From: Xylographa opegraphella
Lineage: Eukaryota
Assembly (NCBI GenBank): GCA_022813865.1
Contig: JALDZX010000011.1
Span: 62,001-126,000, forward strand
DNA: 64,000 nucleotides
Reading direction: 5' to 3'
Part shown: piece by piece, positions 4,114-42,151 of the stretch
How positions within the stretch are numbered: position 1 is the stretch's first letter
Layout of the letters: each line of letters opens with the position of its first letter
The notes under the pieces: generated by a model
Seen by the model: only the letters and a program-made list of their open reading frames with translations
What the model was told of the DNA's origin: nothing
Databases searched by the model: none
Made by a program: the position numbers and the translations under genes

Positions 4114-7100
4114 TCACGGCGATACCGTACTCGTTACCGGAGGAGGAGCAGGGGCGACGGTGGAGCTTCCAGCGACTGGTGTTGAGACCGTGGAAACTGT
4201 GGAACCGGCAGAGCTGGTAGGCCTGGATGAAGCCGGGGGGCTTGAAGCAGGTGGATTCGTATTAGCGGCAATGGTCGCTGCATTGGGTGCATTGTTTGAG
4301 TCCACTTGTCCATTGCCGGTGACACTGTTTGGGACGTTGCGGTACACGTTCAGCAGACTGGCGGCTCCACAGAATTCCTTTTTGTTCCCGGTGCACAACA
4401 TGTTGCAGCTGCTATCCGCCACCATTGTTGGCGAGCTTGGCAGGCTCGAACCGCAGTAGCACTCCTGGGCGTACTCGACCCCGGCATAGGCTTGCGACGG
4501 CGACGAGCCTTGACAGAAAGCGACGCACGCTTCGACGGTCATACCGGTGGTGTTGGTAAACCTCGGACCTCCAAGCAACCGTCCACTCGTGGCTTCCTTG
4601 TAGCAGCCCTGATAAGCATAACTTCCAACGGCCCTGACGGTAGTTGGCGGGACGTAGCTGGTGAGGTTGTATACCGATAATCTTGAGCTTCCCCCGCATA
4701 TTTCACTTTGGTTGCCAGAGCAGGCCATGTTGCAGCCAGTAAAGCCGAGGGCCGAGTATTGCTGGAGAGCATTACCGCAGTAGCACTCGCCAGAGTACTC
4801 TAGACCAGCCAAGCCATAGTTGTTTTTATTGCTGCTGCAGAATGCTTGACACGACTCGACTGTCATCCCTGTCCCATTCGTATAGCTTGCTGCGGATAGA
4901 GCACGAGGCGTGGTCTCATTGGCACAGCCGAGGTATACCCAAGCACCGTTTACTACTTGCCCTGGGGTAGGAATGAACGTTGCTGCCGAAGACGTTGTAG
5001 TGGTGCTAGAAGTTGCGGTGGTGGTGCTGGTGAGACTGGTGGTCGTTACGACGGAGCCAGTAGAGGTTGATGAAGATGAAGGAATCGAGGTGGACGAAGT
5101 AGTTGACGTAATAGAAGTAGTAGAAGTTGAGATCGCCGTAGTTGAGACAACTGACGTAGACGAAGAAATAGATGTGGATGCAGTAGTAGAACTGGATGCA
5201 GAAGAGGAAGTGGATGTCGACATGGAGGAAGTTACTGAAGTGGAAACAGACGCGGTGGACGAGACCGTGCTAGTAGTAGATACGGACGTGGTGGTTGCGG
5301 CTGTTGTTCCACTTACCGTAGAAGTGGTTCCAGGTGTTGTTCCACTTCCTGTAGAGGTGGTTCCAGTTGTTGTTCCACTTCCGGTAGAAGTACTTCCAGT
5401 AGTTGTTCCACTTCCCGTAGAAGTGGTTCCTGATGTTGTTCCACTTTCTGTAGAAGTAGTCCCAGTTGTAGTGCCTCCAGTGGTCGCTGCCGTCGTTGTA
5501 AGACTGCCCGTCACGATAGTCGTGCTCGCAGAGCCTCCAGCCGTTGTCGAGCCCGTGGCTGATGTAGCCGTACTCGACAACGACGCCGTGATAGATCCCA
5601 TCGACAATCCTGACGTCATAGATCCGGCCGAACTGGAGTAAGTACTGGACGAGGAGCTGGCGGCGGTACTCGACGCGGCCGGCACCACTTGATACATGTT
5701 CAGGCGATTCGGCCCACCGCAGTACTCGGTCGCGTTGGCAGCGCAAACCATGTTGCACTTGGTCGCTGCAACGGTGGTGCCATTTTGAGCGGCAGATCCG
5801 GGAGCAATCGTGTTTCCGCAGAAGCATTGCGTAGCGTACTCGACTCCGAAGAACGTGTAACCGGCGCAACCGACTGCGCAGTTTTCCACGGAAACGTTTG
5901 CGCCTGGGATGGCGTACTGGAACCCAGTCAAGGCACGGGCGTTCGATGGCTCGTTGTAGCAACCAAGGTATGTATAGCCTGCAAGTTGTGTTACAGTAAT
6001 TGGTCCAGAAGGCGTCGGAGTGGGAGCAGTTGAGGCCGTAGAGCTCGCTGTTGGAGCAGTGAGGACTTGCGAGTACATATTGAGCCGATTGGGTCCTCCA
6101 CAATATTCTGTGTTATTCCCACTACAAGTCATGGAGCACTTCGTAGCGGCTACTGTGGCCCCAGTAACTAGCACGGATCCATTGTTTATTGTGTTTCCAC
6201 AGTAGCACTCCCCTGAATATTCGACACCAAAGTAAGTGTAGGCTGAACAGGCATTACCACAAGCCTCGACGGTGACTGCAGTGCCTTTGATAGGATTCTG
6301 AAGGTCAGAAAGTGCCCGATTGCCAGTTGCTTCCGTGTAACAGCCCATGTACGACCAAACATCAAAGTTACCCACAGTGACGGGGCCGGCAGGAGTTGAC
6401 GAAGGAGTGGGCATAGAAGTGGGCGTAGAAGTTGGCGCAGAGATTAGCGTAGAATTGGGCGTAGAAGTGGGCGTAGAAGTGGGCGCTGACGTTGAAACGG
6501 TAGCGTTGCCTCCAAGCGTGTAGAGGTTTAATCGATTTGGTCCACCACAGTATTCGCCGGGATTACCAGCACATGTCTAGAAAACATCAGTTGATGAGGC
6601 ATTACGAGGTGGAGCGAAAAGAAGCTTACCATCGAGCAGCCATTGGCCATGACGTTGCTACCTCCAGGCGCAACACCGTTGCCACCACCAATGATATTGG
6701 CGCAGTAACACTCATCGCCGTACTCGACTCCCATATATTTGTAGCCTGAACAGGCAGCAGCGCATGCTTCGACGGTGCTGTTCACACCAGACTCTGGGTT
6801 TAGAAGCGCCGAGAGTGCACGTCCATTAGTATTATCAACATAACATCCAGCATAAACATAAGGTCCGGCAGTCTGAACCACTATGGGTCCTGTAGGTGAA
6901 GCCGTAGGTACAGTAGAAGCTGCAGTACTTGTCGGAGAGCTACCAGTGGCATTTGAATTCAGAATATACACATTCAAGCGGTTTGGACCGCCACAATACT
7001 CGGAAGAATTCCCTTTGCAGGTCATGGAGCAACCGTTGGCATTGGGGTCAGCACCTCCAGGAGCGATGGTATTGTTCCCGCCGATCACATTGTCGCAGTA

Positions 7101-10100
7101 GCACTCTCCACTATACTCAACGCCCATGTATTGGTATCCGGTACATGCGGTGGCGCAGACATCGGGCGTATTCAAGGCTGCAGATACTGGATTCTTTAGC
7201 GCTGATAGAGCTCGGACACCACCAACGTTGTCCTGATAGCAGCCTAAATAGACGTAGTTACCGGCAACTTGCTCAACAACGGGTCCACCGGTCACTGTTG
7301 GGGCACTTGGAGCGCCCGTTTGTGTAGGAATAGGAGCTGAACCGTTGATCTGATACAATTCCAGTCTGCCTGGTCCTCCACAATATTCGGTTTGATTGCC
7401 GGCACAAAGCATTGAGCATCCATTCGTGTTGGGATCAGTACTGGGTTGATTGACGGAACCGGCGTTGAGTGTATTTCCACAGTAGCATTCGTTAGCGTAT
7501 TCCATTCCAAAATATTGATAGCCCTGACAAGCGGCTTGGCAAAGCTCGATAGTGAAGCCAGTTGCAGGTGCGCGTGGAGTGAGACCTGATAATGCTCGCC
7601 CGGTTGTTGCTTCCGAATAGCAACCAGAATAAATATAGTTGCCGGTAGAATTGACAGTTACAGGGCCGGCGGGGCCACCACTTCCAGCCGTGTATCTTGT
7701 GGCGTCATAATAGATGGAGATGTAGCCACCGTTCCCACCGCATGCATCGAGCGGATTACCCGTGCAAGAAAAGGTGCAAAATCCTTGATCGGCCACTTGC
7801 CACTGGGTGCTAGGAGGTGCGTTGCCGCAGAAACATTGTTCCGAATATTCTGTTCCTTCGAAAATATAACCGCCAGGGGTGCCAGCCAAACACATTGCTT
7901 GACAGTTTGCATTGGAGTTATTATTGCCGTCATAGAGCAGATGGGGTAGCAGTCTCGGGCCTTGTCCACCGGCACTGTCCATGAAGCATCCTAGGTACGT
8001 GTATACAGGGTTCCCAGAAGAGTTTGTAGGCCCCACCTTAGTCGATACCACGGTGCCTGTGATCTCAACAACATGGACCCTGAAGTTGAGATCGTCAGTA
8101 TTCAAAGTCCAAGTATTGTTGAAGGTCTGATCAACTTCGTTATAGGCCTCGGCATTAGGAGCGAAAGTGACAGTGCCGTAGGCGCAGGACCCAATAGTGA
8201 TCTGTTGTTCTTCATGCAAGTCCGCAGAGTTTTGAAGGTAGAAGACGCCGTTCGGGGGCTTACTTTTGGAGATATCTAGGACGGAGCCGCCATTGTTACA
8301 GATACGAACCTGTAGCTGGGAAGTAGAGGTAGGTGCAACGTCTCCAAAGTCCATGATGAGATTCGAATCTGGCAGCCAGCCCCCTTCAACGGTGCTGATC
8401 GAAAAGTTGGCGATTGGTGCAGTGGATGCAGTGCCTGCTAGAGTTACTTCCGACATACCACCAGACGTCCACAATAAGAGGTAGGTGTAGTATGTCTGGA
8501 CGCCATTGTAAGGATAGAAGATGGTGTCCACATCCACCACACTACCCGGTCCGATCACGGTGCCTACCGGGGGGAGGTCGTTGGAACTAAAGCCTTCTCC
8601 GAAGTCTGCGGTTCCGTTGCTGAAATAGGTAACATTGTAGTAGGTGGGATCCTCGAGGATAGCGTCAGTAGTGAACGCATAGCCTTCGATTGTCATGGGA
8701 GCAAGTCCAGCATTGGCGATGGTGAAAGGCAGAGTTACAGTCGGAATGGATTGATTCGGAAGAAGAACGACTCCTGCGAAGTCCAGTGTTTTGGGGCTGG
8801 TAACCACGAAAGCATTCTGTGAGACCTCCGTTCCGGTAAGGGTAACAGGGAACTGAGTAGAGTAACCACCAACACCATTGGTCGTAAATATAGTCAATGC
8901 TGTGCTTTGAATACCTGGTGTGACAGTTGTCACCGTCGAATTCGGATCCGCTGCCTGGATACCACCGGTGAGATCCCACGTCACAGGGAAAGTGAACGTG
9001 TTACCTGCCGCAAGCCGGCCCGTTGGCAAGCTTGCATTACTGACAATGAAATTGGGGTTGCCCACAGTCATACCATTAATGGAGGTGATTGCAATGTTTG
9101 CTGTGCATGAGACCGTGGTATTGGCCGTCGATCCGAGGGCAACACTCCCAAACTGGACAGGCGAGGTACAATTCAATGGAAGATTGACGGGTGATCCCAA
9201 GCAATAGAGTACACCATTAGAGCTCGTCACGTAGAGGCGGGAGTCGCCGAAAGCCGGGCGTTGAAATTTATTGGCACCCCCGATAGCAGGTAGGTTGATA
9301 GTCTTGAGAACATTGTTTTGAGGTACTGCATACCACGCTCTGAGACCAACGTTTGGATCCGTGTTCCATATGATGCCGGTTCCTGGATTGCCTTTGTAAG
9401 ACGTGATTGTGGGAATGCCGACGCCGACCCGGCCAGCAGAAATTTCATTGCTCTGGCCTGCCTGTGAGAAGACCGGAGTGCCTCCAGCGCTAAAGCCAAG
9501 CTTGTAAGCATAAGTAGCGTCGCCGTCAGGGGTCGAGTAAATGTAACCGCCCTCCAAAGGATAGGAGCCATATCCCCCAAATAGAGGCTGGTTGGTTGCC
9601 AGCGTCTGAACAATGTTGTCGCCCTGACCCGGTCCAAGCTTGTATCCACCCAGGTTGTCGGCATTCAAGATATATACCTTTCCGTTCTTTCCTCCAGTGA
9701 CAGCCATCCTGTTCACGCCTGTGCCATGGAAGACTGTTGGATCCAACAGTATTATCCCTCCAGAACCAAAATCTTGATCACCTCCATCCATGTTGGAATA
9801 ATCGTATGGCTGGAAGTAGTCAGCAAGGCGAAGGACACCTCCTTCGTCAATATTTAAGTTGACCTAATTGAATTCAGTTAGCGTTTATTTCGGTTGGGTT
9901 GAATCGACAACTTACGGCTGCTTCTCCGAGGGTTTTGCACCCACTCGTGCCTGTCGCTGGGGTTCCGGCATTCTCGTGGGCGTCACCGTTCCCTGTGACA
10001 AAGAACAATCGGTTCCCATCGCTTGCCAAGCCCATTCCGCTCATCCATATTCCACCTTGGCCTCCACCGCCATTCTGACTCCATACGTTCGTCTGCGCTA

Positions 10101-19083: not shown

Positions 19084-22000
19084 TTACGTCAGATTTGTGA
19101 TATCGATAAACGCATTCTGCGCCGCCTCCTTCAGCTGCGTCAGCGCCTCCAGTATACCTAAAATCGTTTCCTCCCGCTGTCCCGTGGCACCCTCCCTCGC
19201 GGTGTCCCACGCCGCAATGAGGATGTTGATGCGCCGCTCGACCCACGCGGCGACGTTGTTCTGTATTTGGGGAATAAACACGCTGCGGAGATACTCGTCC
19301 CACATCTCCGGCAGGTTGGCAAGCGGCTGTGCGCCATTTGGGACGTTTGCATTATAGCGGTCTTGAAAGTGAGCCAGGGCATCACGGATGCCGTTCGCGG
19401 AGGATTTCCACGCCGTGTGTAGGTCCGGACGGTTCATGTAATCGAAGATGTCGATGACGTCCCGGATTACACTCGCGGCTCGAATACCTGTTGCGGTATC
19501 GGTGGTATCGTCGAGATTCTGCGCCTGCCACCTGTCGTCGCCAATGGGGTCATTGCCGCGGATGATTTGCATTTTGAGATTGTTCCAGTGAGGTTGCGTG
19601 TTGACCATGTGGCCGGCGTTGTTTGTGTCGCCATAAGCTCGCCAGACATCGTCGACAGGGGTCTCGTCAGCGGTGTCCGTCTGACCAGCTGGATCCCAAG
19701 CAGACCACCTTGTAACATACCGACCACCAGTAGCAAAGACACCGGGATCGATTACCGGGTGAGTGGTGTGGTAGGTGTGACCGTTCTGCAATGGGACATT
19801 TGCGCCCATGACGAATTCCAGGAATCGTGGATGAGTCTGCAACTCAAGGATATGCTCAGCAGCGGGAGTAAGCCCGGGCGGTATAACTGCATTTGGATTC
19901 CAGGTACGATCCACGCAATCGGCATTGTTCAAGTCGTAATAGCCTGCGTTGGGATTGTGCTGTAGGAGCTCACGGCCTCCCGTCCAATATGTGTGGCTGA
20001 AAATAGTAACAATGATTTGCAGATTAAAGTAAACATTAAATTCTCTCTCACCCCCGGTACGCTTCTCAAGTATCACCAGGCCTTCCAAACTTCGTCTTGG
20101 CGGAGCAAGTGGTTCGCTTCCGTCGTCCGGGTCGTTAAATTTGGGGTCGATATTCCCTAAATCAGACATAGGAGGGCAAGTAATATTGGCAGGTTGTGAC
20201 TTGGAACACTGAATGTATTCGCGGCTTCCGAAGATTGCAAATCCGCTCTCTTTCGGTGGATCCCGTCCAGGTGGGGTTGAGGATTCTGTATGAATCGTCT
20301 GGGGGTTAAAGGGAGGACCGGTAGCAAATGTATCGGTGCTGGCCCAGTCTGCTATACTGCCATTCATAGTCACATCTGCTGATGCTTGTTGGTCGCCATC
20401 ATAGACCGTCAATTGTGAACTGCCAGTGTTCGCAATACGAATCGTGTGAGGTATCCTTGCATTGAGTGATGCGCCGCCATTCAGAACTGACGTGTCATAC
20501 TGAAATACTTCCATTGATAGCGAATTCTCGAGAAGTAGCTCCAAGGCAAAAACAGTACCATCTTTAGTTGCAGCAGCTTGTGTTGTGTCGACCACGACGT
20601 CGCCAGTAAATGGATTGTTTGGGATATTGCCTGCAGCACCTCCGTGGAAATCTCCAACCGACAGCGGCTGGTTTACCTGAAAAGTGGCCTGGTTGCCTTG
20701 TTGGAAATCAACAGTGAAGTCCCTACTTTTGTCAGTTTACATACGTCCGTACGTATGGTGTGCCGGTACTTGCCCGTCTATCTGTCCAGATCCAAGTAGC
20801 CTTGCCTCAATATTCATTGTCGGTGAGAAGGATATGATGCCCGGATGACTGAACTCATATGCTGTTATAGGACTCGAGAATATTGGTAACCGTGGGTTAC
20901 CACCATCAATGTTAAGTACCCCTTTTCCATTGAAAGACAGAGTACCGGCGAGCTTGGGATTGCTGTCAAAATAGCTATATGCTTCTTCAAGTTTCAGTGC
21001 CGGCGCGATCGTGCCGACCATAGTAACTCCCCATTTGATAGTGCTTCTTACTTGCCCAGATAATTTTAGCTGCAGGAATCCATCTTGACTGCTTGAGCAA
21101 TTATTGCGTGATCCATCGTTATCATATAAAACAATGTCAAAATTCTGATTTTCAATGACCGCAGTAAAATGCTGATCAGCCATGACTCGCAGATTCCGGA
21201 TCACTGCCATGTCATCTGTCAGTTTTGTGGAAAAACTGCTCAGTGTAATACTTACGGTTCTGCCAAATACTCAAAGTGCCACTCCAGAACCTCGATATTA
21301 GTGTTCGTTTTTGATGATCTGCGGCCACGACTTGATTGTAGTAATCATGCGAGTCTGAGTAGTCTACTCGTAGGTATATGTCACCTGAATCGCGCTTGGC
21401 CAATGCAAAGTCGTAGCCGTAGTCTAAGTCATATACGATAGCATCCGAAGGGGCACGCTTCTTCAGATGATCTGGTAAGAACTGGTCCAATGAAGGAATG
21501 ACTGAATGTGCAACGGCATATGTAGCGAATCCGCAGTCCTCCGGCATCCGCATAATTGTCCCCGTCAGACCTCCAATGTGCATGTAATTACAGTTTGAAC
21601 TTTCAGAGCTATCCATACACAAAAATTTGGCGGTACCGCCGTCGTTGCCGCGTTCCTGGTCGCATGACAAAAATTCGATACGAGAGCCATCTCGCTTGTT
21701 AAGATTCGTGACTGCGTCTTGGGGTCCATCAATGACCACGAGGCCAAACACCTGAGGATTGGAATCTCCAACAAGGGAAGAGCCTGATGCGATCGTCTGC
21801 ATATCAAAGACCGGAATGTCCAAAACGGGTGGGAGGGTTGGAAAGAGCTTGTCGAGTGATACTGGCAGGAAGGGATTTAAATTCTTAGGCGTATTGCAGC
21901 AATATGGCTTCTGCCGGCCCCACCAGCAAGCCTGCCCCGTTGCGCCTTGCGGATCGAGCGTGAGCTCGATATCGGTGCTATGCATATTAGGAGACAGCTT

Positions 22001-24405
22001 GATAGAGACGAGGCCGAGTAAACTCACTTAGAACATTCGTTATCGTCACAGGTTCCCTGGCCAACCCAATGACACGCTTGAAAGTTATATCCACAACAGA
22101 ATTGTGATTTTTTCCAGCTGAGTCCGCAACCAACTTTTTGGAGTCAGTAAAATATAAAGATGAATAGGAGTTCAAGCTTTCTACTCACCATCACCAGGGC
22201 AATCAGAGACATAGACGTCCTTATACGTAAGATCGTATGGTTTATCCGCCGGACATGAAACATCAGGCGGTTGCCATTCACAAGTCTTGATCAAGTCCGC
22301 CCAGGTATTTGTTTCACAGCAAAATGCTTGCATGCCAGGTTTCAGACATTTAGTCGAACCATCTGGTGAGTGGAATAGCGTGACCTCGCCGGGATGACAC
22401 TGCCCATGGCATGATCCACTACCTCTCCAAGTACAAGATGTTGGCATTGCGTCAATGGGACAATAAATCTGGACAGTTATGAGCAACGGCTGTACAAATA
22501 GCAGACTCGAGTGCTTACGTATCTATTTTGAGAGCCACCGCAGGTATCTTTGAAATAGGCGCCGCCAGGAGCCATTGCATAACCTGGGGGTCCCTGCGCA
22601 TTATCTAGACAGTCAGTCATTATACATTTCTGCCAATTCTGTGACGCCCAATTTCCCGCGTCTGTCACTTGAGTCTTTTAGAGTTCCTCGTTGAATGAAG
22701 GGAGGCTTTTGCCAACGAGTCCAGTGAGGGCAGAGAAATCGTTGTCATCTAAATCGACGGCCCAAATCATGACGCCTCCGAGTCCAATATTGTTAGCCCA
22801 GTCCACCTTTTGCTTGAATGTCTTTGAGTCGTCGTAACTGACCCACTGATCATTGTCAGAACCGTATTGGAAATAATTGACGGCAGCATCTTGATCATGC
22901 TGAATGTCCGGTTTCTGAGCACTGATGATGTCCATGATCTCAAAATAGCCTAAAGTTCCTGCAGAAGCTGTACAAGGTCCGGCTTCGGCGGCTCCTTTGA
23001 ACAAGCAGCCCGGCTTACTACAACCAGAATCGGCAAGTTGAAATGATCGCCCATAGAAGCCTAAACCAAGCACGACCTTGGCGGGAGCAATTCCAACTCT
23101 CCAGAGCAAATCGATAGATAACTGGATCTCTGTCAAATTTGTATGTCCCTGGACGATGCTACCAATCGGGTTGTTCCGGTCCCATACACCATGCAGATCA
23201 TAACTCATCAAGTTGATCCAGTCGGCGTACTTCGCCATTGATGGTAGATCATACCACCGTAGATACCAGTAAGAGCTAGGAATAGTAAAGGAAATACCGT
23301 ATGAACCTCGCTCTGATCGTGAGAACGTATCTCTCAAGGTTTGAAGAAGCTTCACGTAGTTTTCGGTATCGTCGGTGGTGCCGCCACGATCAGGAGCACC
23401 AGGATATCTACCGCTGGTTAACGACCGCTCCCTATCAACTTCGTAAGGTGACAGGCATACTCCCAATCAATATCAATGCCATCAAACCCATATTGTTTCA
23501 TGAATGAAACAAGGTTGTCAGCAAAGGTCTGACGTTTGCCGGCATCTGCTGCGATAGAGGGGAATACGCCTTGGGTAGATGACCCGTTATCCGAAAAGGA
23601 CCATCCACCTACCGAAATGAAGACTTCCAACGCTGCATTGCCGGATTTCATGTTGCGAACATCAGTAGTCTGCGTAAACAAGTCTTCAGGAGTACTTGAA
23701 TCCATGGGGGTAATCTTCAAGCTGTTAGGGTCAATAGAGGCAAATGCAAAGTTAACATGCGTGAGACCATCGACTGGAAGTGCACTCGGGGGAAAGGCAT
23801 GGCAAGATCTTTGAGTAGACCAGCTCTCATAGTACCCGATTACTTTGTTAAGAACCGAAGACGAGCTCGCGCCCGCTGGGACTGGCGGATTGACAACGCA
23901 GTTGCTCTGACAGCTGCCCGTACAGAAATCGGAAGTGGACCCACAAAATCCATACTGGCTACAGCAGGTGTTCAATGGACATGTTTTTCCTGGGGGGTCG
24001 GCCCACGAGCCACCTGCAAGGCTATTTAGATGGTACTCTCAACGGTGGCATAGACTCACACTCGGCTCGTGCATCACATTGACTATCACAGTCTGCTCCA
24101 CACCAGGTCGGCCCCAGACCGCACTCCCCAGTATCTCCACCATCAAATCCTCCACAGCAAGCGTACTGCTTGCAAGGAGTACCTTTCTTACAAGAATACT
24201 CATCACGCCGAAAAATTGTCAAATTGGCGTCATCGATGATACGTGTAAGGGAAGATGACTTCTCTAATGCGGTTGCTGGATGAAGTTGCGTATCCTTCTT
24301 CCCAATCAAGCCAATAGAGCCAGAAGGAGAAAATGAGAAAATGGACCAAAGTAAGGCGAGGGCTAGCGGTATAAGGAAGGTCCTTGACCACCCACAAGAC
24401 CACAT
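19084..24405 (-). CDS. Subgroup C (killer-toxin-like) GH18 chitinase with two N-terminal chitin-binding (CBM18/hevein-like) modules and a long C-terminal extension; one in-frame stop at 22678-22680
   Basis: Exons 24405-24060, 24013-23461, 23407-22519, 22468-22189, 22133-22028, 21977-21256, 21203-20774 and 20722-19084 total 4965 nt in frame. Hydrophobic N-terminus, CPLNTCCSQYGFCG hevein motif, SVGGW, intact catalytic FDGIDIDWE|YPG, MSYDLHG, GLGGVMIWAVDLDD. An alternative ATG lies at 24435. Confidence 0.92.
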
Positions 24406-25448
24406 GGTACTAAGATTCGACAGGGGTACCGCCATTACTGTGGTGGTCACAACAACGCTTGGAATTTACCTATGAGCAACTGTAGACCTTAGGGCAAGAG
24501 GAGCAAAACAGAATGAAAAAAAGTAGATAGAGCACTGTAAAGGATGGGAACATAAGCAGAAAGGGATTTTCAGAGATAGCAATTGAGCTCCGAGCATGCT
24601 GAGCTGATATAGCAAGTTAAGATTACTTGATAGAGAACAGAGCCCCAGTATGTAGGACCAAGCATAGTAGATCCTCTAGTAGTCTACACAACTATGTCGA
24701 GGTCAGCCGCGGCGAGAAGAACGGACGAGCATCCTGCCATGCCTCCTGCCGAAGGATGAAGGCATAGTGCTTGGGACAAGCGGAATGCTGTATCATCATC
24801 AGCTTCACCGCATACGCCATAAGATGCGGTCTTTCTCGTCCAGCTCAGTGGCGGTGAAAAGTCCATAGGAAGCGATGGTAGAACGCTCTGATCTAGCGGC
24901 CAGGAAAGTGGAGATTGCATCATCTCGCTCCGCCGACAGTTGTAAGCGCTAACAGGATCTATCTTCAGGCGCATCAATACCTGAGCAGAAACATTTCAGA
25001 CCAATGCTTCTACATGGCTGGCCAGAAAGTCAGCCGTTGAATGTGCTGATGCCACTGGCCTGGAGTTTACCGCCGATGCGGTCAGGTCCAGACCGTGAAA
25101 CGATCAGCCTCGCAGGATTTGGATGGATTGTCTTTGCCTCAACCGACTGTATCAATCGTGCTGACCACCATCTGACAAGAGAGAGCTGAAGCAGTGCAGA
25201 TTTTATATTCATTCTCCACAATGCTCATGACCCTTCTGGCCACTTTCCCATCTTGTGGTCGTTTCGCTGTTGTCCCTGTTTGCTGGGTGTATAATGTTCA
25301 GTGCTTCTTCTCGTCTGTATTGCCATTGCATATCTCTCACATGCTATGCTGCTGATATCTGGGCTCGAAAGGTATTGTACGGCCCATTTTCACACATTGG
25401 CATTGACAAATATCGTGACCTTGCCCTACAATGTTTCTTGGGAAAGGC

Positions 25449-27806
25449 ATGAGTCTACGAGCAGTGTGGACGGCATTTATCTTCTCCGGCAGAGCATGGT
25501 CCCAGATCTTCGGTGACGGTTCGAACGGAGTGCCTCCGATTGTCTATGCTCCGCCGGCGGGCCTATCAACTGCGTGTAACGCAACATTTGCGACTCCAAT
25601 TCAATGCTCCCCGATTCTACCCATGATTGCCTGGCAAGGCTACTTTCCATCGGTCGACGATCTCCGTATTTTGTGCAATACCACTTGCTTACAGTCTATG
25701 GGGAGTTTTCGCAACAACCAGCTGGCCTCGTGCGGATCTGATGTGGAGATAGTTGCCGGGTCAACTTATCCGGCAACTTACAATGTCGACTACTTTATTT
25801 TTACGTACAACTACACTTGCCGGACTGATAGGTATCTTGGTCTTCCATAATTTCCTACGGTTCGAAGCTGAGTCTTCCAGAATCACAAATGCATGGTGTG
25901 CTCCACAGGTCGATTTGTGGGGCAACGATGCATCACCATCCGCAAACGAAACTTGTTCCGATTGTGTCTTGGGTACACTTCAGACGGAACTCAACTCCCC
26001 TTTCGGCTACGATGCAGATCTGGCCACAAACTTCACTTCTATGACATCTGCGTAAGCTTCTGGCTTTTCTTTTCTAATCTCATGTACTTCTTCCCTGTCT
26101 GGGACAGAGAGGCCCAGGAGTGTTCTATCACAGCCTAACCAATCAACTTTAGATGTCAAGCCTCGAGTTATCCGATTACATCGCCAGCTTCATATACAGC
26201 CTCTGGTACTGTAACCTCCACCACAGCGGCTGTGACACCCAGCTGCTCCATTTCGTATACAGTCCAGGCTGGTGACAACTGCAATACCATCAGTATTGCA
26301 CAAAACGTGTCAACATTTGATCTCTTGTACGAAAATGGCCTCGAAGGGTACTGCTCAAACTTTCCCGGCGCGGGAAAGAAATTATGTCTTCCGGATCAGT
26401 GCCATATTTACACGGTACAAACCAACGATACCTGTTACGGCATTACGCAGACGAACAACAATGCCTTTTCTATCTCACAATTGGTCTCTTGGAATCCAAA
26501 CCTCAATCGAGACTGCTCGAACATCAATCAGCTTGTTGGCTTGCAGATCTGCGTTTCCTTTCCTGGCACATCAGGTGGCGCATCCGTTTCAACTCCGTCC
26601 ACCACGTTCGCGCCGGTGCCACCGAATCTCGCGGTAGGCACGAACACCAACTGTTCGCGATACTATAACGTGTCAACCGGCGATTATTGTTCGTACATTA
26701 CAATACAGGAGGGTATTTCACTGCCCGACTTTTACTTCCTAAACCCCGAAATTAACTCGACGAATTGCAATAACTTACTTCTTGGTGAAAGCTATTGCGT
26801 AGCTCCTATTGGCACCATTTCGACTTATCCAGGATATGGGTATGTCAGCCTGGCAGTGCCAAATTCCCTTGCTAACTCCAACGATAGTGGTTTATCGGCT
26901 ACAGGTGCTCCAGACCCCTGCACAGGCATTTCAGCCGCATCAAGCTGCTTCGCGACGACATATATGACAGGCTCCGCTTGGGCATGGCCTACGAAACTGG
27001 CAACTACAACCGCAACAGCTGGTGCTGGGCTGCTACCGCTTGCTGCAGGGACCTTGAGCAATTGCACCACGTACGATCAATACTATACTTCCACATCGGA
27101 CAACAGCACAACCTACAACATCAATAGTTGTTACGCTGTTGCTCGATTTCGTGGCGCGACAACCGATCAGCTCGTAGCCTGGAACCCGTCCTTGAACTTC
27201 GACAGCAATAACCCAGACGCATGCGTCCTCGTCCCGGGCTTTCGATATTGCGTCTCTACGGCCGGAACGATGGCTATGACAACGACAACAGCCCCCATGG
27301 CCACATCGTCTCTGGCTACAATTATTCCTTCGCCCACAACCACTCCAACAGCTCCGACGGGCACCTGCTCGGGCGGCGTTGCAACCCCAGAGCAAACCCA
27401 AAGCGGCGAGCCATGCTGGTGCCAGAAATGGGTGGGGCAGGTCGATGGCCAATATTGTGCCGACATGGCTGCCGCTGCCGGCATCACCCTCGCTCAGCTG
27501 TACACCTTAAACCCACCGCTCAACAACGACTGTTCAGGCCTTTACAAAGGCTACGCATACTGCGTAGCACCGGTGCCTGTGGATCCGGCCTGTGCGGAGG
27601 GAACCTGGCCCCCGGGACCAGTCCAGGCGGGCATCTCATGCAAATGCGATAGTTGGGTCATGCAGCAGAGCGGTACGTACTGCGCAGACATGGCAGCAAC
27701 GGCAGGGATATCTTTGCAGCAACTATATAGTTTGAATTCGGCGCTGAATGGCGATTGTAGCGGGTTGTTTGTAGGGTATGCCTATTGTGTGGGGCTTGCT
27801 CCGTAG
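25449..27806 (+). CDS. Secreted LysM (CBM50) protein with an N-terminal Cys-rich domain and six LysM modules
   Basis: Likely signal peptide MSLRAVWTAFIFSGRAWS. Introns at 25832-25880, 26052-26152 and probably 26840-26887. Fungal LysM motifs such as YTVQAGDNC, QLVSWNPNLNRDC, FYFLNPEIN..C..L..G.SYCV. Divergent from the chitinase. Confidence 0.92.
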
Positions 27807-28156
27807 CTTTGGCTTAGAAAATCGGGGAAACAGTGTGTAGAAATAATAAAGCTGCCGCCTTCAGTATACTTAGCACACGGGTAGATCACCATTCAAATCG
27901 AAGTGCCCTTGAAAGTAGTCCGATTTTGAAACATTTGATTACGGCAGTCACATAGAAACCGCAACAGAGGACTTGGCATTCCTTTACCAGGCACAACACA
28001 GCCTCATCCTTCTGGCTGTAACCACGCCCAGCGACCTTGTCCCTCATCACGCTGCACGACCCACAATCTTCTCTCCCCACACCTTCACCCCATTGCTTCT
28101 TCTCATACCTTCTTCTCCCCATAATCCATTCCCCACCCTCCAACACCACCATCAGA

Positions 28157-29116
28157 ATGACATCCCCCCCGCCCCCCTTCCCCCTGGTGCCTCTCTGCAA
28201 CCAAACCCTCACCGCCCCCTCCAGCCTCACCCCCACCGAGCGCGCCCTCCTCAAAGGGCGCCCCTCCCCCGCCGACGAAGACATCCTCTACCGAAACGCA
28301 ACAACCCTCCCGCTCTCCGCCCTCGTGGCCAAAGCCCTCGCCACGCCCCCCACCCTCACCCCGCACGAAGCCCACATCCTCGTCCACGGCCCCGCGCCCC
28401 GCACCCCCGCGGAGAAAGCCAGCCGGCTACAACGCTACCTCGCGCTGACGCCCACGCAGCGGCAGCTACTGGACCGCGCCAGCGACGCCGTGGCCGACAA
28501 GGAGGAGAAGCGCGCGCGCAACGTCGCGTATCGGGTGCTGCAGGCACTGCAGGCAGAAGCGTCCACGTCCCCCGCACCGGCCCGCGCCCCGCTCGTCTTC
28601 CCGTGGGAGCGCACCGACTGGGTCTCCCTCGTCCGCGAACAGGACTACGCGGCTTGGGGCTTCCCCGTGCTGCGCACGGCGTACTGCGACCCCGCAGCCT
28701 GGCTCGCCTTCCGCGCCCGCTTCTCCGCCCTCGCGGCGCGGGAGATGCAGCGGCTCGCGCCCGCGGTCGCGGACCGGTTCCGCGTGCCCTACGTCGAGGA
28801 CGAGGAGGCTCTCGCGGGCGCGGAGCGTGAGGGCTTGCTGGCTTACTACACCCGGCTGCGGGCGGAGGGGAAGCTAGCGGGGGGTTTTGACTGGGGGGTG
28901 TTTGGGAGCGTGGATGAGAAGGTGCTGGAGGAGTGTGGGGCTGAGGAGGGGGAGTGGGTCGTGCCGGTGTGGGATGCGGAGTGGAAGGAGGGGGGTGGGT
29001 GGGTGCGTGGGGTGGGTGTTCAGGCTGGGTTGGTGTTTGCGGTGCTGCTGCCGAAGGTGGTGAGGGGGGAGAAGGGGGCGTTGGAGAGTTTGGCGATGTT
29101 GGGGGTGGATCGGTAG
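28157..29116 (+). CDS. Uncharacterised intronless cytoplasmic protein (~319 aa) with a WGFxxxRTxY...W..F motif
   Basis: GC-rich ORF with strong codon bias. WGFPVLRTAYCDPAAWLAFRARF...YVEDEEALAGA resembles a pattern I recall from uncharacterised fungal proteins. No signal peptide or transmembrane segment. Confidence 0.75.
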   Translation: MTSPPPPFPLVPLCNQTLTAPSSLTPTERALLKGRPSPADEDILYRNATTLPLSALVAKALATPPTLTPHEAHILVHGPAPRTPAEKASRLQRYLALTPTQRQLLDRASDAVADKEEKRARNVAYRVLQALQAEASTSPAPARAPLVFPWERTDWVSLVREQDYAAWGFPVLRTAYCDPAAWLAFRARFSALAAREMQRLAPAVADRFRVPYVEDEEALAGAEREGLLAYYTRLRAEGKLAGGFDWGVFGSVDEKVLEECGAEEGEWVVPVWDAEWKEGGGWVRGVGVQAGLVFAVLLPKVVRGEKGALESLAMLGVDR

Positions 29117-29644: not shown

Positions 29645-31994
29645 TCATACTAGGATGAAAACAGCATCACCGAACATCTTGCCTCCATCACCATGCCATT
29701 GCGTACAGCGTTTCCAGTCAAAATTCTCCCGACTTACCTTTGCTTCATGTCCACTGTTACCCTCGCTATTCTGAACAAGCTCCCGGCAAGCTTCCTCCGT
29801 ACTCATCAGAAACACGCTTCCAGTTGGAGACATGAAAACGCCCACTCTCCGAAAGATGTTGCCCGCAGCAGTACCCGCCACCCGCTCCACCAGAAGCCCA
29901 TATACTAGTGTGCGTTCATCCAGAGTGGATCGTGGCAGTGACACTGACACAGACACCGGCACACAGAAAATCTGCTTTCTGACCTCATCGTCTGCAGGCA
30001 GCGCTTTCTGAATATCTTCGAATACGGAGACGTGGATCAGCGTCTGGCCGGCCATCAGGAGCTGATAGCTTAACAAAGGCCCGGAGGATTCCATGGTCTC
30101 CTTCTCGACGAGGTGCGCTTCCAGCATGCGGCCGCGGATGATCAAGCTTCCGCTTACGACTTGGCCCATTGCGTCGTTGTGGGCCGCCGGTGTAACATGA
30201 GCAGCCAAAATGTCAATGAGGAAATCGCGCTGCTTGCGTTCCCCACCCCAGTCCCATTGGATGACCGTTTTCAGCGGTCCGTCGGTAGCGGCCCAGGACC
30301 AAGACGGAGCGCGGTAGGGTATGGATTGATGACCTACAGTGCCAGAATTCTTCCGTCCTATTGGACTACGAGCAGTCACCCAGAGCAACTGTCGGGGGAG
30401 CTGAGCCTCCCATAGGCCGGCCAGGTAGCGGCTGTTCATGAGCGGGTGCAGCTCGCGTGCAATACCGGAGATTGCAACGAGTTTGTCAGTGCTACGCGAG
30501 AGAGCGCCGGAGGTATAGGCGGCTACAACGCGGTCCCATACGTGGAAGGCAGTAGTAGTAGTTCCGGACCAACGAAGCATGCTGGCGGAGGGGTCCACCG
30601 GCTGCAGTGCGGGATCGAAGGGATGTAGGGATTTGTATGGATGTCCTGTAAGGACGTTTGGAAAGCCGTTGGGGAAGGTCTCGCAGGCTTCGAGCGCACG
30701 GCATTCCCAGTAAAGTTGTTTGAACCCAAAATGGAGGACCCGAGGGGCAAGAACACGCTGTATGAAAGTTGTTCAGTGGAATTCTACGTGTGGGAGAGCT
30801 GGAACGAACATACTTCTTGAACAACCCAGCCTCGCGAATTCAACGGCGCGTCTTCTACACCATTCTTCCACAGCTCAAGGTCCAGAAAAGTGTGAACATC
30901 GGAATAGGTCGTCTGAGGCTCAGGATACTTTGCTCTTTGGAAGCGATTTCGCGTTGTTCGACGAACTTTCTCTTTTTGAACGGCTTCGGGGAATTGCAGT
31001 ACCAGTGGTTCAATCAACGCCGGGATTCTTTTCGAGAAGAAGCCCCTTCGGCCATCCCATACTCCAGTCGCTGCGATATTACAGTAGCTGTACTTATAGA
31101 CTTTGCCCATCAAGGCTGCCTCTCGATTCCAATCCTCCGGAGAATCCTGAAGGATACAGAGCGAATCTATCCAAACATACCTGATACCTAATCGACGAGT
31201 CACTTCTATGGCGTCCAGAAACGTCTGTGTAAGTTTTTCAGGGGGCACCCGGTTCTTCAGGCTCTCGAAGTTTTTGGTCGTCAGTTTGAAGATCTCCAAC
31301 TTGCCCCAGCAATGGGACAAGGATACATACAAAGAGCCAGAGGGTATATCTGCTGATTCACACAGCCGCAATAGATCACCACAAACGAGATCACCAACAT
31401 CAATGAGCCGAGATGGGCGCCATTCCTGAACAGTCTCTGTAGATGAACTCTCTCCACATTGATGGTTCTGCAGACAGTTACTGAGCCAATGAGATGCAAG
31501 GCGTAGAGTATTCTCCGAGGATGTACTCTCTTGAACTGGCGACCGAGCACTCGAATGTTGTTGTACAAGATCCGAGTTGGTAGTGGGTTCATCTGAGAAC
31601 ATGAGGCTCAAAGCACCCTACCAAAGGGAGAAACGACATAGGGTAGACTACCAAGCAAACCATTGTAAGGCGCAGTATTAAAATGCCACTTCGCATTCCG
31701 CCACGAAAACCTGAAAATATAACACCCCACTGGAGGGAAAGGCTCAATGTATCCAACGATCACGTCACTTCCCCAACACGCATCTAAATCACTGCCTTCT
31801 GCAGATAATGCAGCTTGTTGCTGGGCAGAAAGCCCGGCCCAAACACGAGCGCAGAGATGACAGCCGGACAAGGCTGCGTGGCGAAAGGCCAGCCCGTTCT
31901 CGTGATGGTTGAAATAGGGCATGTAGGCATCCTTGGATTCCCGGATCTGATAGCCACCAGGCTTGAAGATGGCATCACAGGCAGGACAGAGCAT
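29645..31994 (-). CDS. Stand-alone HET (heterokaryon incompatibility) domain protein
   Basis: MLCPAC...CHLC N-terminus, then PSRLIDVG, YVSLSHCWG, YVWIDSLCILQD, MGKVY, LNSRGWVVQE|RVLAPRVLHF, DKLVAISG, YLAGLW, APSWSWA. Three exons; the first intron donor is uncertain. Confidence 0.9.
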
Positions 31995-38759: not shown

Positions 38760-41252
38760 TCACCCCAAGGTGATGATCTTGCGCGTCGCCTCCGCTTGAG
38801 CCCAAGCATCAATGTGCATCTTGCCCACACCCAAGCGATAAGCAACGTCATCGATCCACTCCACCAGCATGATGTTGTACATGCACCAGGGCTTTTCCCC
38901 ATCGTACCGCTGCTGGTCGAAATGGCCACCCCCTGTGTCGAGGTGAGGCCTGTCAGGAAAACATTGTTCCTCCATGGTCGTCGCGTCCACATCTACCAGG
39001 AGATCCGGATTGCTCTCTCCGCGAGACTCCTGCTCGGGGAGCTTGCATCTCGATATCATGACGAGCGCGTACGGCGATTCTTTGGAATCTTTCTTCAATT
39101 TCAAGGAGAGCTCCGCGGGAACCATCACGTAGCCTCCTACTTTACCAGGCGAGGTGGCTAGACCCAAGGGGCACACGATGTGTTTTTCTTTGGTACATCG
39201 GTGATTCTGTATGCACATCGGCCAGTAGTGGTCATCGTCGATGGTGCTTGGGTTGAATTCCGTGGTCTCCGCCTCGAATACTAGATGATTGGTCGTACCT
39301 CTCAAACTCGGTCCTAGTACACGCTGTTCTTCCTGTGCGGTGGGGTGGAAGAACCAGAGACGTGGATTGTCCCGTTCCCAGTAATAGGGTACGCTACTTT
39401 CTAATGCGCCTTTCCACAGAGCACGATATTGCTCCCGCCTTGTAGCATCTTGATTGGCGCCTTTTGGATAGCGGAAGTCTTTGCCGGAGAATTTCCGGCC
39501 GTCACTCTCGATCCATTCGATCCGCGACAGATTCTCATCGGTGTTGCATGTCACCGGCCCTACCCAGCCTGCCCAAGTCCAGCTTGGGAAAAGCGGTTGT
39601 CCAGATATGGGATCACGTCGTCTTATTGAAGGGCCCGAGGGTTGCCAGAGGAGCTGAGAGTCTAGTTCAGACCGAGGCAGTCCAAAGACGAAGTCGCTCC
39701 GGAAAAGCGGACGAAACCCGGTGGCGATGCCCTCAAAAGCATTCAGCATATCAGACGCAAAGCTCAATTGCCGCGAGGTGTATGCTTCTACCACCCTCCG
39801 GTACGAAGACACGTTGACGGAGCCCGAGGAGGACATCATCATTGGTGTCTGTTCCTTGAAAACCTCCGGTTTGAATTTTCTATCCAGCCCGCTCTCAACC
39901 ACATCATCGCTTTCGATAAAGACGTCTTCACGGTGTTGACATGAGAAAAAGCATCGCTGTTTGCCGACAAAAAGGACTCTTGGGGACAGCAGTCTTTCCT
40001 GGAGCGTCCAAGCTCTTGAGTTCCATACAGACTTGTCGATTGCGTCCGTAAAAATGGCAGGGCGATTGGCGAGAATTATACCCTGTATCTGTTCGATATA
40101 CTGACGAAATTCGCGCGGCTCTGACGGCACACCAGCCAGATGCGCGTCGGCCGTGTCCCCGGATGCAGCCGCAATCGTTAGTACGGCCGAGCTGTAGATC
40201 ATATCCATAAAAGCAATTTGCTGTGCTTGGTCGTCCAAATCATCCTGAATTATACAGAGACTATCCACCCATAAGTATTGTTCTCCGAGCTTTCTTGTCA
40301 GAGACATTGCGTCTTTGATGGTGTTCGGAAGCTCTTTTGCTCTTTCGAGTAGGGAGCCCTTCATTTCTAGGTCCTTCCTTATGTTTTTGGTGTTTCGTAA
40401 TGCTTTGGCTGTGCCCCAGACATAGCTCAGAGCAACATATCGTGGCGTTTGGACAGATTGAACGATACAAGCTGACTCGACATCAATCAGTCGGAAACTT
40501 CGAGGCAGCTCTCTTCCATCGGATTTGCTGGGGCTCAACCCGCAATTGCCATTATTACAATCATTGTACCACTTTTTGACCAAATCACATCTAATGTGAG
40601 GAATCGTAATAGACCGATGACTATTCACCTCATTCACTAAATTATCGTCCATTTGGGTTGAGCTATATATCGTACTTATACCATTTCTGCCTTCGGGAGT
40701 AGGATCCAGGTACAGTAACAATTGCCGAGGACCACGAGTATCTGTTTCGATCGGCAACGTCCTCATGCTACACATGACAGGCTTTTCAGCAATCATGGTG
40801 TCAATCACACGTCCTTCAAACGCGTCTCTCAAGGCGGTTGCCACCAGTCGACAGAATGCGCATTTCTCATTTTCAAGAACAAGTGCCAAGAATTTCAACT
40901 GTATTTCTTCAAGTATTTGCAACAGAGGGCTTCTGATGAGGTATTTGAAATCGATATGCCGGCAGGTTTCGCAAAGATAGCCCGGTTCATTCGGCTGCAA
41001 TACCTGCGGGCTCTCTATCCACCAGCGCTTGGATGGAGCCACAAATCTCTCTAGGATTGGTTTTTTCACGAGCACGTCCTGCTTTGGAGGCGCCGGCTTG
41101 GGATACGTCTTTCCATACCATGTCCAGTAGATATGATCAGCGATCATCGCTCGGTCTGGAGAAGGTGATTCGCTCCATTCAGTTATGGTACGGCCCAGGA
41201 TCTTGACTTCTTCTGTATTGTTAGCTTCCGGAGTGTTCTTCTCATCTGCCAT
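38760..41252 (-). CDS. Stand-alone HET domain protein (830 aa, single exon)
   Basis: CETC...CAFC, FRLIDVE, YVALSYVWG, YLWVDSLCIIQDD, MDMIY, WNSRAWTLQERLLSPR, YTSRQLSFASDMLNAFEGI, FPSWTWAGW. Confidence 0.93.
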   Translation of the reverse strand: MADEKNTPEANNTEEVKILGRTITEWSESPSPDRAMIADHIYWTWYGKTYPKPAPPKQDVLVKKPILERFVAPSKRWWIESPQVLQPNEPGYLCETCRHIDFKYLIRSPLLQILEEIQLKFLALVLENEKCAFCRLVATALRDAFEGRVIDTMIAEKPVMCSMRTLPIETDTRGPRQLLLYLDPTPEGRNGISTIYSSTQMDDNLVNEVNSHRSITIPHIRCDLVKKWYNDCNNGNCGLSPSKSDGRELPRSFRLIDVESACIVQSVQTPRYVALSYVWGTAKALRNTKNIRKDLEMKGSLLERAKELPNTIKDAMSLTRKLGEQYLWVDSLCIIQDDLDDQAQQIAFMDMIYSSAVLTIAAASGDTADAHLAGVPSEPREFRQYIEQIQGIILANRPAIFTDAIDKSVWNSRAWTLQERLLSPRVLFVGKQRCFFSCQHREDVFIESDDVVESGLDRKFKPEVFKEQTPMMMSSSGSVNVSSYRRVVEAYTSRQLSFASDMLNAFEGIATGFRPLFRSDFVFGLPRSELDSQLLWQPSGPSIRRRDPISGQPLFPSWTWAGWVGPVTCNTDENLSRIEWIESDGRKFSGKDFRYPKGANQDATRREQYRALWKGALESSVPYYWERDNPRLWFFHPTAQEEQRVLGPSLRGTTNHLVFEAETTEFNPSTIDDDHYWPMCIQNHRCTKEKHIVCPLGLATSPGKVGGYVMVPAELSLKLKKDSKESPYALVMISRCKLPEQESRGESNPDLLVDVDATTMEEQCFPDRPHLDTGGGHFDQQRYDGEKPWCMYNIMLVEWIDDVAYRLGVGKMHIDAWAQAEATRKIITLG

Positions 41253-42151
41253 TTCAATATTGAATTCCCTTCCGAGTTGCCTGGCTCAATGGTTGGTCTG
41301 AAAGTCGAAATCGACTGTGACGCCTTAACATCATTGTCCCCACGAATGTACCTCGCGTGTTATACCTATGGATGCTTTTCGATTCATCAAGACTTCGATA
41401 GAGACACCTGGAGCGACCATGAGAGCAAGCATAAGACTTCGAGCTGGAGAGGCTTAGGTGGGGATTCAAGTAATAATGTCATGGGATTTCCTCGTCTCGT
41501 CCCGCCTTGGCAAGGCACCCCTCACCAGGCCCAGGCCCCTTGGCACATCCACAATGTTGAATGCCTTCCCTTAGTCTACTCGCAACATCCGACGATATGT
41601 GTTTGTGGTCTTGTATCGTGTTCGTATTCCCACGGGCCCAAAATTCAATTATTTCTCTGGAACATAAGCTCCGCGGAATCCTATGCCATTAAAGCATGAA
41701 CGCGTGACCCCTTTATCCCATGTGTGAAATGAAAAGTACTCACCTCTTGCCGTGTTACTATTGTGATACTGTTCAGGTACCAGTATATCATAGTTTTTGA
41801 CTGGACCGTCCCAGATTCGTTCCATGACGGGGTTTTCGCAGCAAGACAGATGGTATAAGCGGAGCCGATCGAAAGAACCGACGAGCAAAGCTGCTGCTCT
41901 GATATACACGAGCGTTCGTAGCATGATCTCCATTCCCGGAGTCAATTTAGCATGTATGATACACCTGGCGCGCTCATGACAGAATTGACGGTAACATTGA
42001 TGATTTTTATTGGTCTTCCGAACCACCCATGACCACCCGTCTTGGAAAGCCAGATCAAGAATCTTCATGCCGGTCCCAGCCCATCTGACTGACTGTGGAC
42101 TTCGACCGCTCGATCAATAGCCAATGTTCCATTTCGCCGTATTACTTCCCT

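Follow-up and report, generated by a model that had tools for sequence, protein, structure and literature searches.

The label "killer-toxin-like" has been attached to subgroup-C chitinases for some twenty years, and to our knowledge no partner or mechanism has been assigned to their C-I half, which carries no LysM domains. The C-II half was tied in 2024 to zymocin-type ribonuclease toxins (Heneghan et al., bioRxiv 10.1101/2024.10.25.620242). According to this preprint, the precursor from which the alpha and beta subunits of zymocin are cleaved is a relative of the group C chitinases, a conserved terminal Cys links beta to gamma, and zymocin-type systems combine a proteolytically processed chitinase precursor with a non-secreted immunity protein. 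In the zymocin-like clusters of Pezizomycotina reported in the same text, a C-II chitinase is accompanied by a small secreted gamma-toxin, in many cases also by a LysM-only gene and in some by an immunity gene; all of these published clusters have C-II chitinases, and some lack one of the genes (bioRxiv 10.1101/2024.10.25.620242). In Trichoderma, LysM-only genes adjoin subgroup-C chitinase genes, as in the tac6/tal6 pair described in PMC4392113. Kinship with zymocin and neighbouring LysM genes were the background on which an earlier note on the present DNA had relied, and both hold in these sources (PMC4392113; bioRxiv 10.1101/2024.10.25.620242). Here we analysed a 64,000-nucleotide stretch of fungal DNA, referred to as the window, in which a subgroup-C chitinase gene, a secreted LysM-only gene and a third gene (gene 3) follow one another. 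The reading that we favour, by analogy with these systems and with a probability of roughly 0.4, is that the C-terminal domain (CTD) of the chitinase is a constant, kexin-released effector domain and that gene 3 encodes its cytoplasmic antidote.

The C-terminal domain and the processing site

The CTD comprised 324 residues (20058-19087, minus strand). It was preceded by a Cys-rich, middle and beta-rich region of about 800 residues (22674-20071, minus strand), here called the scaffold, the middle part of which was 38-51% identical in relatives. In the AlphaFold2 model, calculated from a 60-sequence alignment, the CTD folded into an alpha/beta N-terminal half followed by a C-terminal half of four long helices, with a predicted local distance difference test score (pLDDT) of 95.6 and a predicted template modelling score (pTM) of 0.91. 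The last exon (550 residues) was searched against 1.84 billion representative proteins, which gave 116 matches at E≤0.001, most of them covering the CTD; 50 of the matches reached E≤1e-10, and 18 reached E≤1e-30. Classified by content, 114 of these matches comprised 11 records with GH18 and CTD, 13 with scaffold and CTD without the GH18 end, 4 with scaffold and no phmmer match to the CTD, 54 short CTD-only records, 15 scaffold fragments, and 17 records in which a CTD-like region near the N-terminus was followed by a long tail. The named members of the CTD family came from Trichoderma viride (P0007), Hypocrella siamensis, Colletotrichum chrysophilum, Fusarium sp. and F. culmorum.

Scaffold-bearing relatives numbered 28 (11, 13 and 4), and phmmer found the CTD in 24 of them, in P0026 only weakly. 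A CTD profile was built without the four scaffold-only records and P0026 and was then run on these five. It matched P0026 (E 2e-45), P0030 (E 2e-38) and P0072 (E 9e-35); in P0024 only the first ~40 CTD positions were matched (E 7e-4) before the record ends, and P0031, whose record likewise breaks off within that stretch, was not matched significantly (E 0.14). The same CTD family was present in each of the 26 scaffold-bearing relatives with records that reach far enough. The earlier note had proposed that the sequence after the last KR is an exchangeable tip; in the comparison of homologues an unrelated C-terminal domain was found on the scaffold in 0 of the 28 relatives.

The ratio of nonsynonymous to synonymous substitution rates (dN/dS) was calculated against the orthologue in L001, a metagenome locus with a collinear copy of the gene. 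For the CTD it was 0.049, compared with 0.074 in the beta/linker part and 0.044 in a GH18 exon (dS 1.0-1.35), and judging from these values the CTD is under strong purifying selection. Two further comparisons, that of the large LysM exon and that of the window with L002, a relative of L001, were discarded because their input was out of frame. Uniform conservation of the tip, which the earlier note had itself listed among the findings that would refute its polymorphic-toxin reading, was the outcome observed. Scaffold identity and CTD identity were uncorrelated (Spearman -0.03 over 55 pairs, a value reached by 2686 of 5000 permutations) because of one clade, P0026/P0030, whose scaffold was the most similar to that of the window (49-52%) and whose CTD was the least similar (18-21%). 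The maximum-likelihood trees of scaffold and CTD contained the same three supported groups and no supported conflict, and the stem of P0026/P0030/P0072 (Colletotrichum-type) had a length of 1.40 substitutions per site in the CTD tree and of 0.16 in that of the scaffold. This indicates that the CTD of these three proteins was accelerated, or was replaced by a distant member of the same family, and not that it was swapped for an unrelated domain. On the evidence of the homologues, the CTD belongs to this chitinase clade as a constant part under strong constraint and is not a swappable tip.

Immediately before the CTD lay the kexin-type dibasic site LEKR (20070-20059, minus strand), which was also LEKR in L001 and was LAKR in P0002, a deposited gene model of Peltigera leucophlebia. 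The KR site before a distinct C-terminal domain, claimed in the earlier note, was thus borne out, as the site was located and the CTD folded separately. At the scaffold/CTD junction of 16 aligned proteins, 12 ended in Arg, with L-[ED]-K-R in 6 (the window, P0010, P0031, P0032, P0037 and P0050), L-D-P-R in 2 and another xR in 4; the remaining 4 had no Arg. P0032, P0037 and P0050 had the site and the CTD in common with the window though their middle regions barely aligned (8-25% identity). Kexin (Kex2) has its classic sites, LEKR and LDKR, in the alpha-factor of yeast, and in the K1 toxin it cuts at Pro-Arg as well. From the motif we infer a cut at LEKR.

Gene 3, the fusion proteins and the predicted complex

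Gene 3 (28157-29116, plus strand) was a single open reading frame (ORF) of 319 residues without signal peptide, and no hydrophobic N-terminus was present at its start. It had been called an orphan, which did not survive the search, in which 20 homologues besides itself were found at E≤0.001. Most of these were of about 345 residues and 48-61% identical by BLASTP at full coverage (up to 65% in the MAFFT alignment), and the named ones were hypothetical proteins of Physcia stellaris and Achaetomium macrosporum. No relative of gene 3 was found in Pfam, NCBIfam or PDB, the PDB profile search giving nothing below E 0.15. The family DUF6924, suggested for gene 3 by a protein atlas lead (0.86), was set aside as unconfirmed by Pfam. 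In an independent assembly (run X1) the contigs broke at 28141-28170 and at 29001-29030, near the two ends of gene 3, which left an 890-nt contig of slightly lower depth (154 vs 161) in a region of 61% G+C; these breaks may be due to repeats or to a variant.

A hidden Markov model (HMM) of the gene-3 family was run on the 116 last-exon matches and gave hits in ten of them (E≤0.01), all lying downstream of the CTD-like part. One of the ten was P0002, a partial gene model consisting of 309 CTD residues (78% identical to the window) and 88 gene-3-family residues, which is probably a chimeric gene call. Because P0002 joins them, the CTD and gene-3 sequences must be adjacent on one strand in Peltigera leucophlebia, an arrangement that an inversion of the chitinase-LysM pair would produce. 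The other nine belonged to a family of mostly cytoplasmic fungal fusion proteins of 416-703 residues, found for example in Trichoderma atroviride and Apiospora arundinis. Trichoderma contains both a fusion gene (P0093) and the chitinase (P0007). Among the six fusion proteins that were read, four had no hydrophobic N-terminus, P0081 had a signal-like start and P0065 had transmembrane-like segments. Alignment by hhalign of the gene-3 family (20 sequences) with 16 fusion proteins, none of which was shared between the two sets, gave a probability of 97% and an E of 1.1e-10 over 181 columns, with gene-3 residues 144-319 aligned to the C-terminal part of the fusion proteins. A second profile comparison was discarded as circular, its two alignments having sequences in common. 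CTD-like and gene-3-like halves therefore exist naturally as one chain.

Binding between the CTD and the gene-3 protein was predicted by the complex test, in which the three runs scored 0.82, 0.86 and 0.85 (median 0.85) and each of the three controls scored 0.00. The partner had a pLDDT of 77 or higher, and 80% or more of the contacts agreed between the runs. Of the reference sets, 51 of 78 solved complexes reached the mark applied in this test, as did 2 of 108 mismatched pairs; for eukaryotes the figures were 39 of 65 for solved pairs and 2 of 126 for unrelated ones. In the modelled interface, CTD helices 187-206 and 288-312 packed against residues 32-35, 76-77, 90-125 and 132-150 of the partner, so the model supports binding of the gene-3 protein to the helical half of the CTD.

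A set of polar residues, numbered within the CTD, differed between the chitinase-linked CTDs and the fusion family. Glu or Asp at position 68 was present in 26/26 chitinase-linked CTDs and in 9/9 fusion proteins, and K162 in 25/25 and 15/16, respectively; at position 72, Glu or Asp was found in 26/26 chitinase-linked CTDs and Glu in 8/11 fusion proteins. H69, N153 and N159 behaved otherwise. H69 was present in 25/26 chitinase-linked CTDs and in 0/9 fusion proteins (Arg in 7), N153 in 22/25 and 0/11, and N159 in 25/25 and 0/15 (His in 9, Gln in 4). In the AlphaFold2 model, H69 was located at the end of a strand, N153 within a strand, and N159 and K162 in the following helix. The set [ED]-H...N...N...K survived in the highly diverged P0026/P0030 clade. 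This pattern suggests that [ED]-H...[ED]...N...N...K is an active site or a site of ligand binding, retained only in the secreted versions of the domain. A protein atlas pointed for the CTD to AHH (0.77) and GmrSD_C (0.78), HNH-type nuclease families, both below the trust level of the tool, and a nuclease function of the CTD is a lead only. The positions of H69, N153 and N159 were also considered in view of the beta-beta-alpha metal finger of the His-Me finger (HNH-type) nucleases, which has a catalytic His and Asn/His ligands; the CTD gave no hit to such a family.

The chitinase, the LysM gene and gene 3 were found in the same order and orientation in the window and in L001, at a dS of 0.9-1.35, which is near saturation. 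The right flanks differed, with a HET gene in the window and an unknown ORF and MCM in L001.

The chitinase gene, its premature stop and its surroundings

The chitinase gene (24435-19084, minus strand) was modelled with splice sites read from the sequence, exon lengths compared with L001, and Pfam. Its coding sequence (CDS) of 1664 codons was distributed over eight exons (24435-24060, 24013-23461, 23407-22519, 22468-22189, 22133-22028, 21977-21256, 21203-20774 and 20722-19084). The N-terminus contained a hydrophobic stretch, taken for a signal peptide by eye without a predictor. Two Cys-rich chitin-binding (CBM18-like) modules followed (about 24198-24061 and 23993-23898, minus strand), with the intron 24059-24014 between them. 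Of the two chitin-binding modules listed in the earlier note, the second was confirmed as Pfam Chitin_bind_1 (E 4.9e-12), and the first was recognised by eye only. The GH18 catalytic domain (23846-22747, minus strand; Pfam Glyco_hydro_18, E 4.1e-28 and 8.1e-40), split by the intron 23460-23408, contained the intact catalytic motif DGIDIDWE, of the form DxxDxDxE. No Pfam family was found in the ~1100 codons after GH18. The large minus-strand gene with GH18, a Cys-rich and beta-rich region and a distinct C-terminal domain, as well as the order of these parts, proved to be real.

The chitinase was placed in subgroup C by its GH18 domain with catalytic motif, its N-terminal CBM18, its very large size and the long region after GH18. 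Its relatives were large GH18 proteins of Trichoderma, Hypocrella, Colletotrichum and Fusarium, the class being assigned by domain content. By Pfam, the chitinase had no LysM match in any of its seven ORF pieces and no Hce2 domain; of the 30 relatives scanned, none showed LysM and 9 showed GH18. Because it is without LysM, the chitinase is C-I-like in architecture by the criterion given in the preprint (bioRxiv 10.1101/2024.10.25.620242).

Two details of splicing were observed in the 3' part of the gene. The intron 20723-20773 (minus strand) has the GC donor GCAAGT (GC-AG), and the L001 orthologue has GTAAGT. A 75-nt AT-rich GT...AG stretch (20051-19977) was considered as an intron and rejected, being coding in L001 and the homologues and folding as a beta hairpin; the deposited model P0002 splices out this look-alike intron.

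An in-frame TAA (22680-22678, minus strand) was present at codon 553 of 1664, 14 codons after the end of GH18, where the L001 orthologue has AAG. Of the secreted protein of ~1650 codons claimed in the earlier note, the large gene with its N-terminal hydrophobic stretch therefore stood, and the uninterrupted frame did not. Removal of the stop as a 42-nt intron (22716-22675), which gives a nine-exon model of 1650 residues, was rejected: in L001 this stretch was conserved as well as the flanking exons and read through, and it was coding in 6/6 homologues covering the site. The L001 orthologue, 92-93% identical in GH18 and 87% in the CTD, had a CDS of 1663 codons open throughout, with exon lengths equal to those of the window except for 3 nt. 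The independently assembled contigs of run X1 (depth ~161), which is probably the source itself, matched the window at every base of 19084-28170. Because they show the same letters, the TAA is not an assembly slip, the underlying reads nonetheless being the same. As no other defect was seen in the 3.3 kb downstream, the TAA is either recent or bypassed somehow. The LysM gene and gene 3 were intact despite the stop in the chitinase, and from the sequence the TAA could be a recent decay of the chitinase gene alone.

The LysM-only gene (25449-27806, plus strand) was Tal6-like and collinear in L001, with exons 25449-25831, 25881-26051 and 26153-27806 and a product of 735 residues. Pfam recognised two LysM stretches (E 1.7e-15), and the fungal LysM pattern printed in PMC4392113 found two others. 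The earlier note's secreted multi-LysM gene was thus confirmed, while its count of six was reached by eye only. The L001 orthologue was split into two overlapping ORFs in different frames (7686-8429 and 8356-9357), which is either a frameshift or an extra intron absent from the gene of the window. The chitinase and LysM genes were arranged head-to-head, the subgroup-C chitinase gene directly adjoining the secreted multi-LysM gene, and the pair was kept in L001. The intergenic region (24436-25448) measured 1013 bp from ATG to ATG, in agreement with the divergent spacing of ~1 kb given before.

The window as a whole is a chromosome piece of a filamentous ascomycete, with intron-bearing genes including VPS11, two WSC-domain genes, two HET-domain genes and major facilitator superfamily (MFS) transporters. 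The closest named relatives of the studied genes were those of the lichen-forming fungi Peltigera leucophlebia and Physcia stellaris, and we read the three genes as a conserved block of a lichen-type ascomycete. Two very long ORFs (in pieces of 719-1111 residues) with four WSC domains each (E 9e-68 and 9e-59), encoding large, secreted or wall-associated proteins, were located at 972-9863 (minus strand), a few kb away from the chitinase cluster. The HET-domain (heterokaryon incompatibility) genes lay on the minus strand at 29645-31617 and 38763-41285, the first directly adjoining gene 3.

Readings of the locus and comparison with known systems

If the CTD is an effector with a cytoplasmic antidote, the chitinase would bind and open the chitin wall of a neighbouring fungus. 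Kexin would cut after LEKR in the secretory pathway, by which the CTD would be freed or left non-covalently attached, and the CTD would act as the effector, possibly as an enzyme using the invariant [ED]-H...[ED]...N...N...K set. In the producer and its kin, the gene-3 protein would neutralise any CTD that reached the cytoplasm. The complex model, the residue pattern and the fusion proteins lend indirect support to the idea of a processed effector and a cytoplasmic binding protein.

Several results weigh against this reading, and a number of them are what would be expected if the locus were an ordinary subgroup-C chitinase/LysM pair serving wall remodelling, nutrition or mycoparasitism. The CTD would then be a non-toxic accessory (for wall or membrane attachment, for oligomerisation or as a pro-domain), and gene 3 would be incidental, a housekeeping-type cytoplasmic protein whose true partners are the cytoplasmic CTD-like paralogues and whose position is a historical accident. 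We regard this alternative as possible but somewhat doubtful. It is favoured by the loci of gene-3 homologues. In the flanks of 14 metagenome loci, examined up to 10 kb on each side, a match to the chitinase, the CTD or the LysM gene was found only in L001. The conservation of the neighbouring genes, which the earlier note had wanted checked, thus held for the trio in L001 and failed in 13/14 gene-3 loci, which were without a chitinase; likewise the role of gene 3 as a partner is tied to the CTD by the complex model and the fusion proteins, and by adjacency in only 1/14 further loci. Seven loci (L002, L006-L010 and L013) were 95-97% identical to L001, but only from L001:9597-9604 rightwards. 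This breakpoint, lying ~240 bp past the LysM stop codon and ~400 bp before the gene-3 ATG, splits the genes in close relatives of L001, and left of it the seven loci hold other genes, e.g. CoaE. As aligned, it is a shared rearrangement or an indel removing the chitinase-LysM pair there. The chitinase-less loci mean that gene 3 persists without an adjacent chitinase, which retained immunity after toxin loss and an unrelated position explain equally well.

The structure searches are likewise what the ordinary pair would lead one to expect. In a Foldseek search of PDB with the CTD model nothing was found at E≤0.001 (best E 0.16), so that no known toxin fold was matched, and in the VIA-wide comparison the best Z was 7.6, with 0 chains at Z≥8. 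The rows of the latter covered mainly residues 68-324 and the top ones the generic helical half, so the alpha/beta half was not really probed by the fold search. The nuclease lead (AHH, GmrSD_C) received no support from HMMs. No sequence match to the CTD was found in Pfam, NCBIfam or PDB (nothing below E 0.15 in the PDB profile search), and a Pfam scan of 46 members of the CTD family at E≤5 gave no family common to more than one member. A word-indexed search gave 0 matches with the last exon and one with the CTD profile, a GH18 protein of Fusarium culmorum, which is weak evidence. The literature searched, which comprised sources other than subscription papers on subgroup C, contained no description of the CTD or gene-3 family. 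The dN/dS of the CTD is as expected of an accessory with a structural or enzymatic role, and not of a toxin in an arms race. Gene 3 evolved much faster than the CTD (dN/dS 0.30 vs 0.05; identity to L001 64% vs 87%). Moreover, 7 of 44 blindly drawn neighbour pairs also passed the complex test, the interface residues were no better conserved than the rest, and the passing score may reflect the fusion family and not the present pair. It would also be unusual for a single cytoplasmic chain to contain both a toxin and its antidote. Tal6/tac6-type pairs are known without a toxin claim in the accessible text of PMC4392113. The effector reading is further burdened by the TAA after GH18, because of which the CTD is probably not translated in this genome; judging from the frame, the effector part is probably not made here.

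An ordinary pair, however, leaves three observations unexplained, namely that the polar residue set is invariant in the secreted version and lost in the cytoplasmic paralogues, that a conserved kexin-type site lies exactly at the domain boundary, and that the genes are found together in the window, in L001 and, reoriented, in Peltigera leucophlebia despite saturated dS and changed flanks. The kexin-type junction would also fit alpha/beta-type processing in a strictly zymocin-like system, in which the CTD takes the role of the beta-subunit, helping a separate secreted toxin subunit into the victim, and gene 3 confers immunity to that toxin, which is encoded at another place in the genome. The group C chitinases are homologous to the cleaved zymocin alpha/beta precursor and some published clusters are without one gene (bioRxiv 10.1101/2024.10.25.620242). 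Such a system is nevertheless improbable here. No gamma-toxin-like ORF (at least 80 residues with an N-terminal hydrophobic stretch) was found at 17.8-19.1, 24.4-25.4 and 29.1-29.6 kb, in the flanks and intergenic regions searched, where a short intron-rich gene could escape. The terminal Cys that links beta to gamma is absent, as the last Cys of the chitinase lies 277 residues from the C-terminus. The chitinase without LysM is C-I-like, against C-II in all published clusters, and the complex model places the gene-3 protein on the CTD itself. Least probable of all, and close to refuted, is the reading of the earlier note as a fungal polymorphic toxin, with unrelated toxic tips exchanged after the KR on a constant scaffold, each with its own immunity gene. 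A basic site before a separately folding tip, the predicted partner binding and the very diverged tip of the P0026/P0030/P0072 clade (18-21% vs 49-52% for the scaffold) speak for it; the absence of an unrelated tip from all 28 scaffold-bearing relatives, the low dN/dS of the CTD, the scaffold and tip trees without supported conflict, and a gene 3 that is not tied to the tip in most loci speak against it.

A wider extension of the effector reading, which we consider unlikely though worth stating, is that C-I chitinases are single-chain killer toxins. Their payload would be the kexin-released [ED]-H...N...N...K enzyme domain, possibly a nuclease, with a dedicated cytoplasmic antidote, and both would have split from an ancestral two-domain cytoplasmic protein, the fused survivors of which are without the active-site residues. 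If this were true, loss of the toxin with retention of the antidote, as in the stop observed here and in the chitinase-less relatives of L001, would be the usual decay of killer systems. In any case, the locus gives the C-I half a concrete handle, consisting of an unnamed folding CTD, a kexin-type site, a predicted partner, fusions and a discriminating residue set. Were the CTD toxic and gene 3 protective, they would represent a second, different killer architecture on fungal chitinases, relevant to fungal competition, mycoparasitism and lichen biology. Were they not, the pair would still define two new protein families, probably working together.

In bacterial polymorphic toxins (Rhs, CDI), unrelated tips are swapped on one scaffold with matched immunity genes. 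The present locus resembles them in its targeting part, cleavage site, C-terminal effector and nearby binding protein (here predicted), and differs from them in the swapping, which was looked for in the 28 scaffold-bearing relatives and not found. Among fungal proteins, the Hce2-domain chitinases (e.g. Aspergillus nidulans ChiC2-2) are likewise subgroup-C enzymes whose single chain includes a further putative effector domain; Hce2 is another, named domain and those enzymes are C-II (cited in bioRxiv 10.1101/2024.10.25.620242). The tac6/tal6 genes of Trichoderma atroviride share with our locus the pair of a chitinase and a LysM-only protein, the latter with several Cys-framed fungal-type LysMs, and the accessible text makes no mention of a third gene, a chitinase C-terminal domain or processing (PMC4392113).

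The closest likeness is that to the zymocin of Kluyveromyces lactis and the zymocin-like clusters, as described in the preprint (bioRxiv 10.1101/2024.10.25.620242). In common with zymocin and these clusters, the locus has a secreted chitin-binding GH18 precursor with an N-terminal chitinase and a C-terminal part, the cut between which is inferred here. As in the clusters, there is a LysM-only gene and a nearby non-secreted protein; in the clusters such a protein is thought to protect the producer. In contrast to the clusters, the chitinase here is without LysM domain and terminal Cys, and the predicted partner binds the chitinase's own CTD. Because of the missing LysM and terminal Cys, and because no gamma-toxin-like ORF was found nearby, the locus is not a member of the zymocin-like cluster type. 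By analogy, it may work in a way related to zymocin, with the chitinase's own processed end as the payload.

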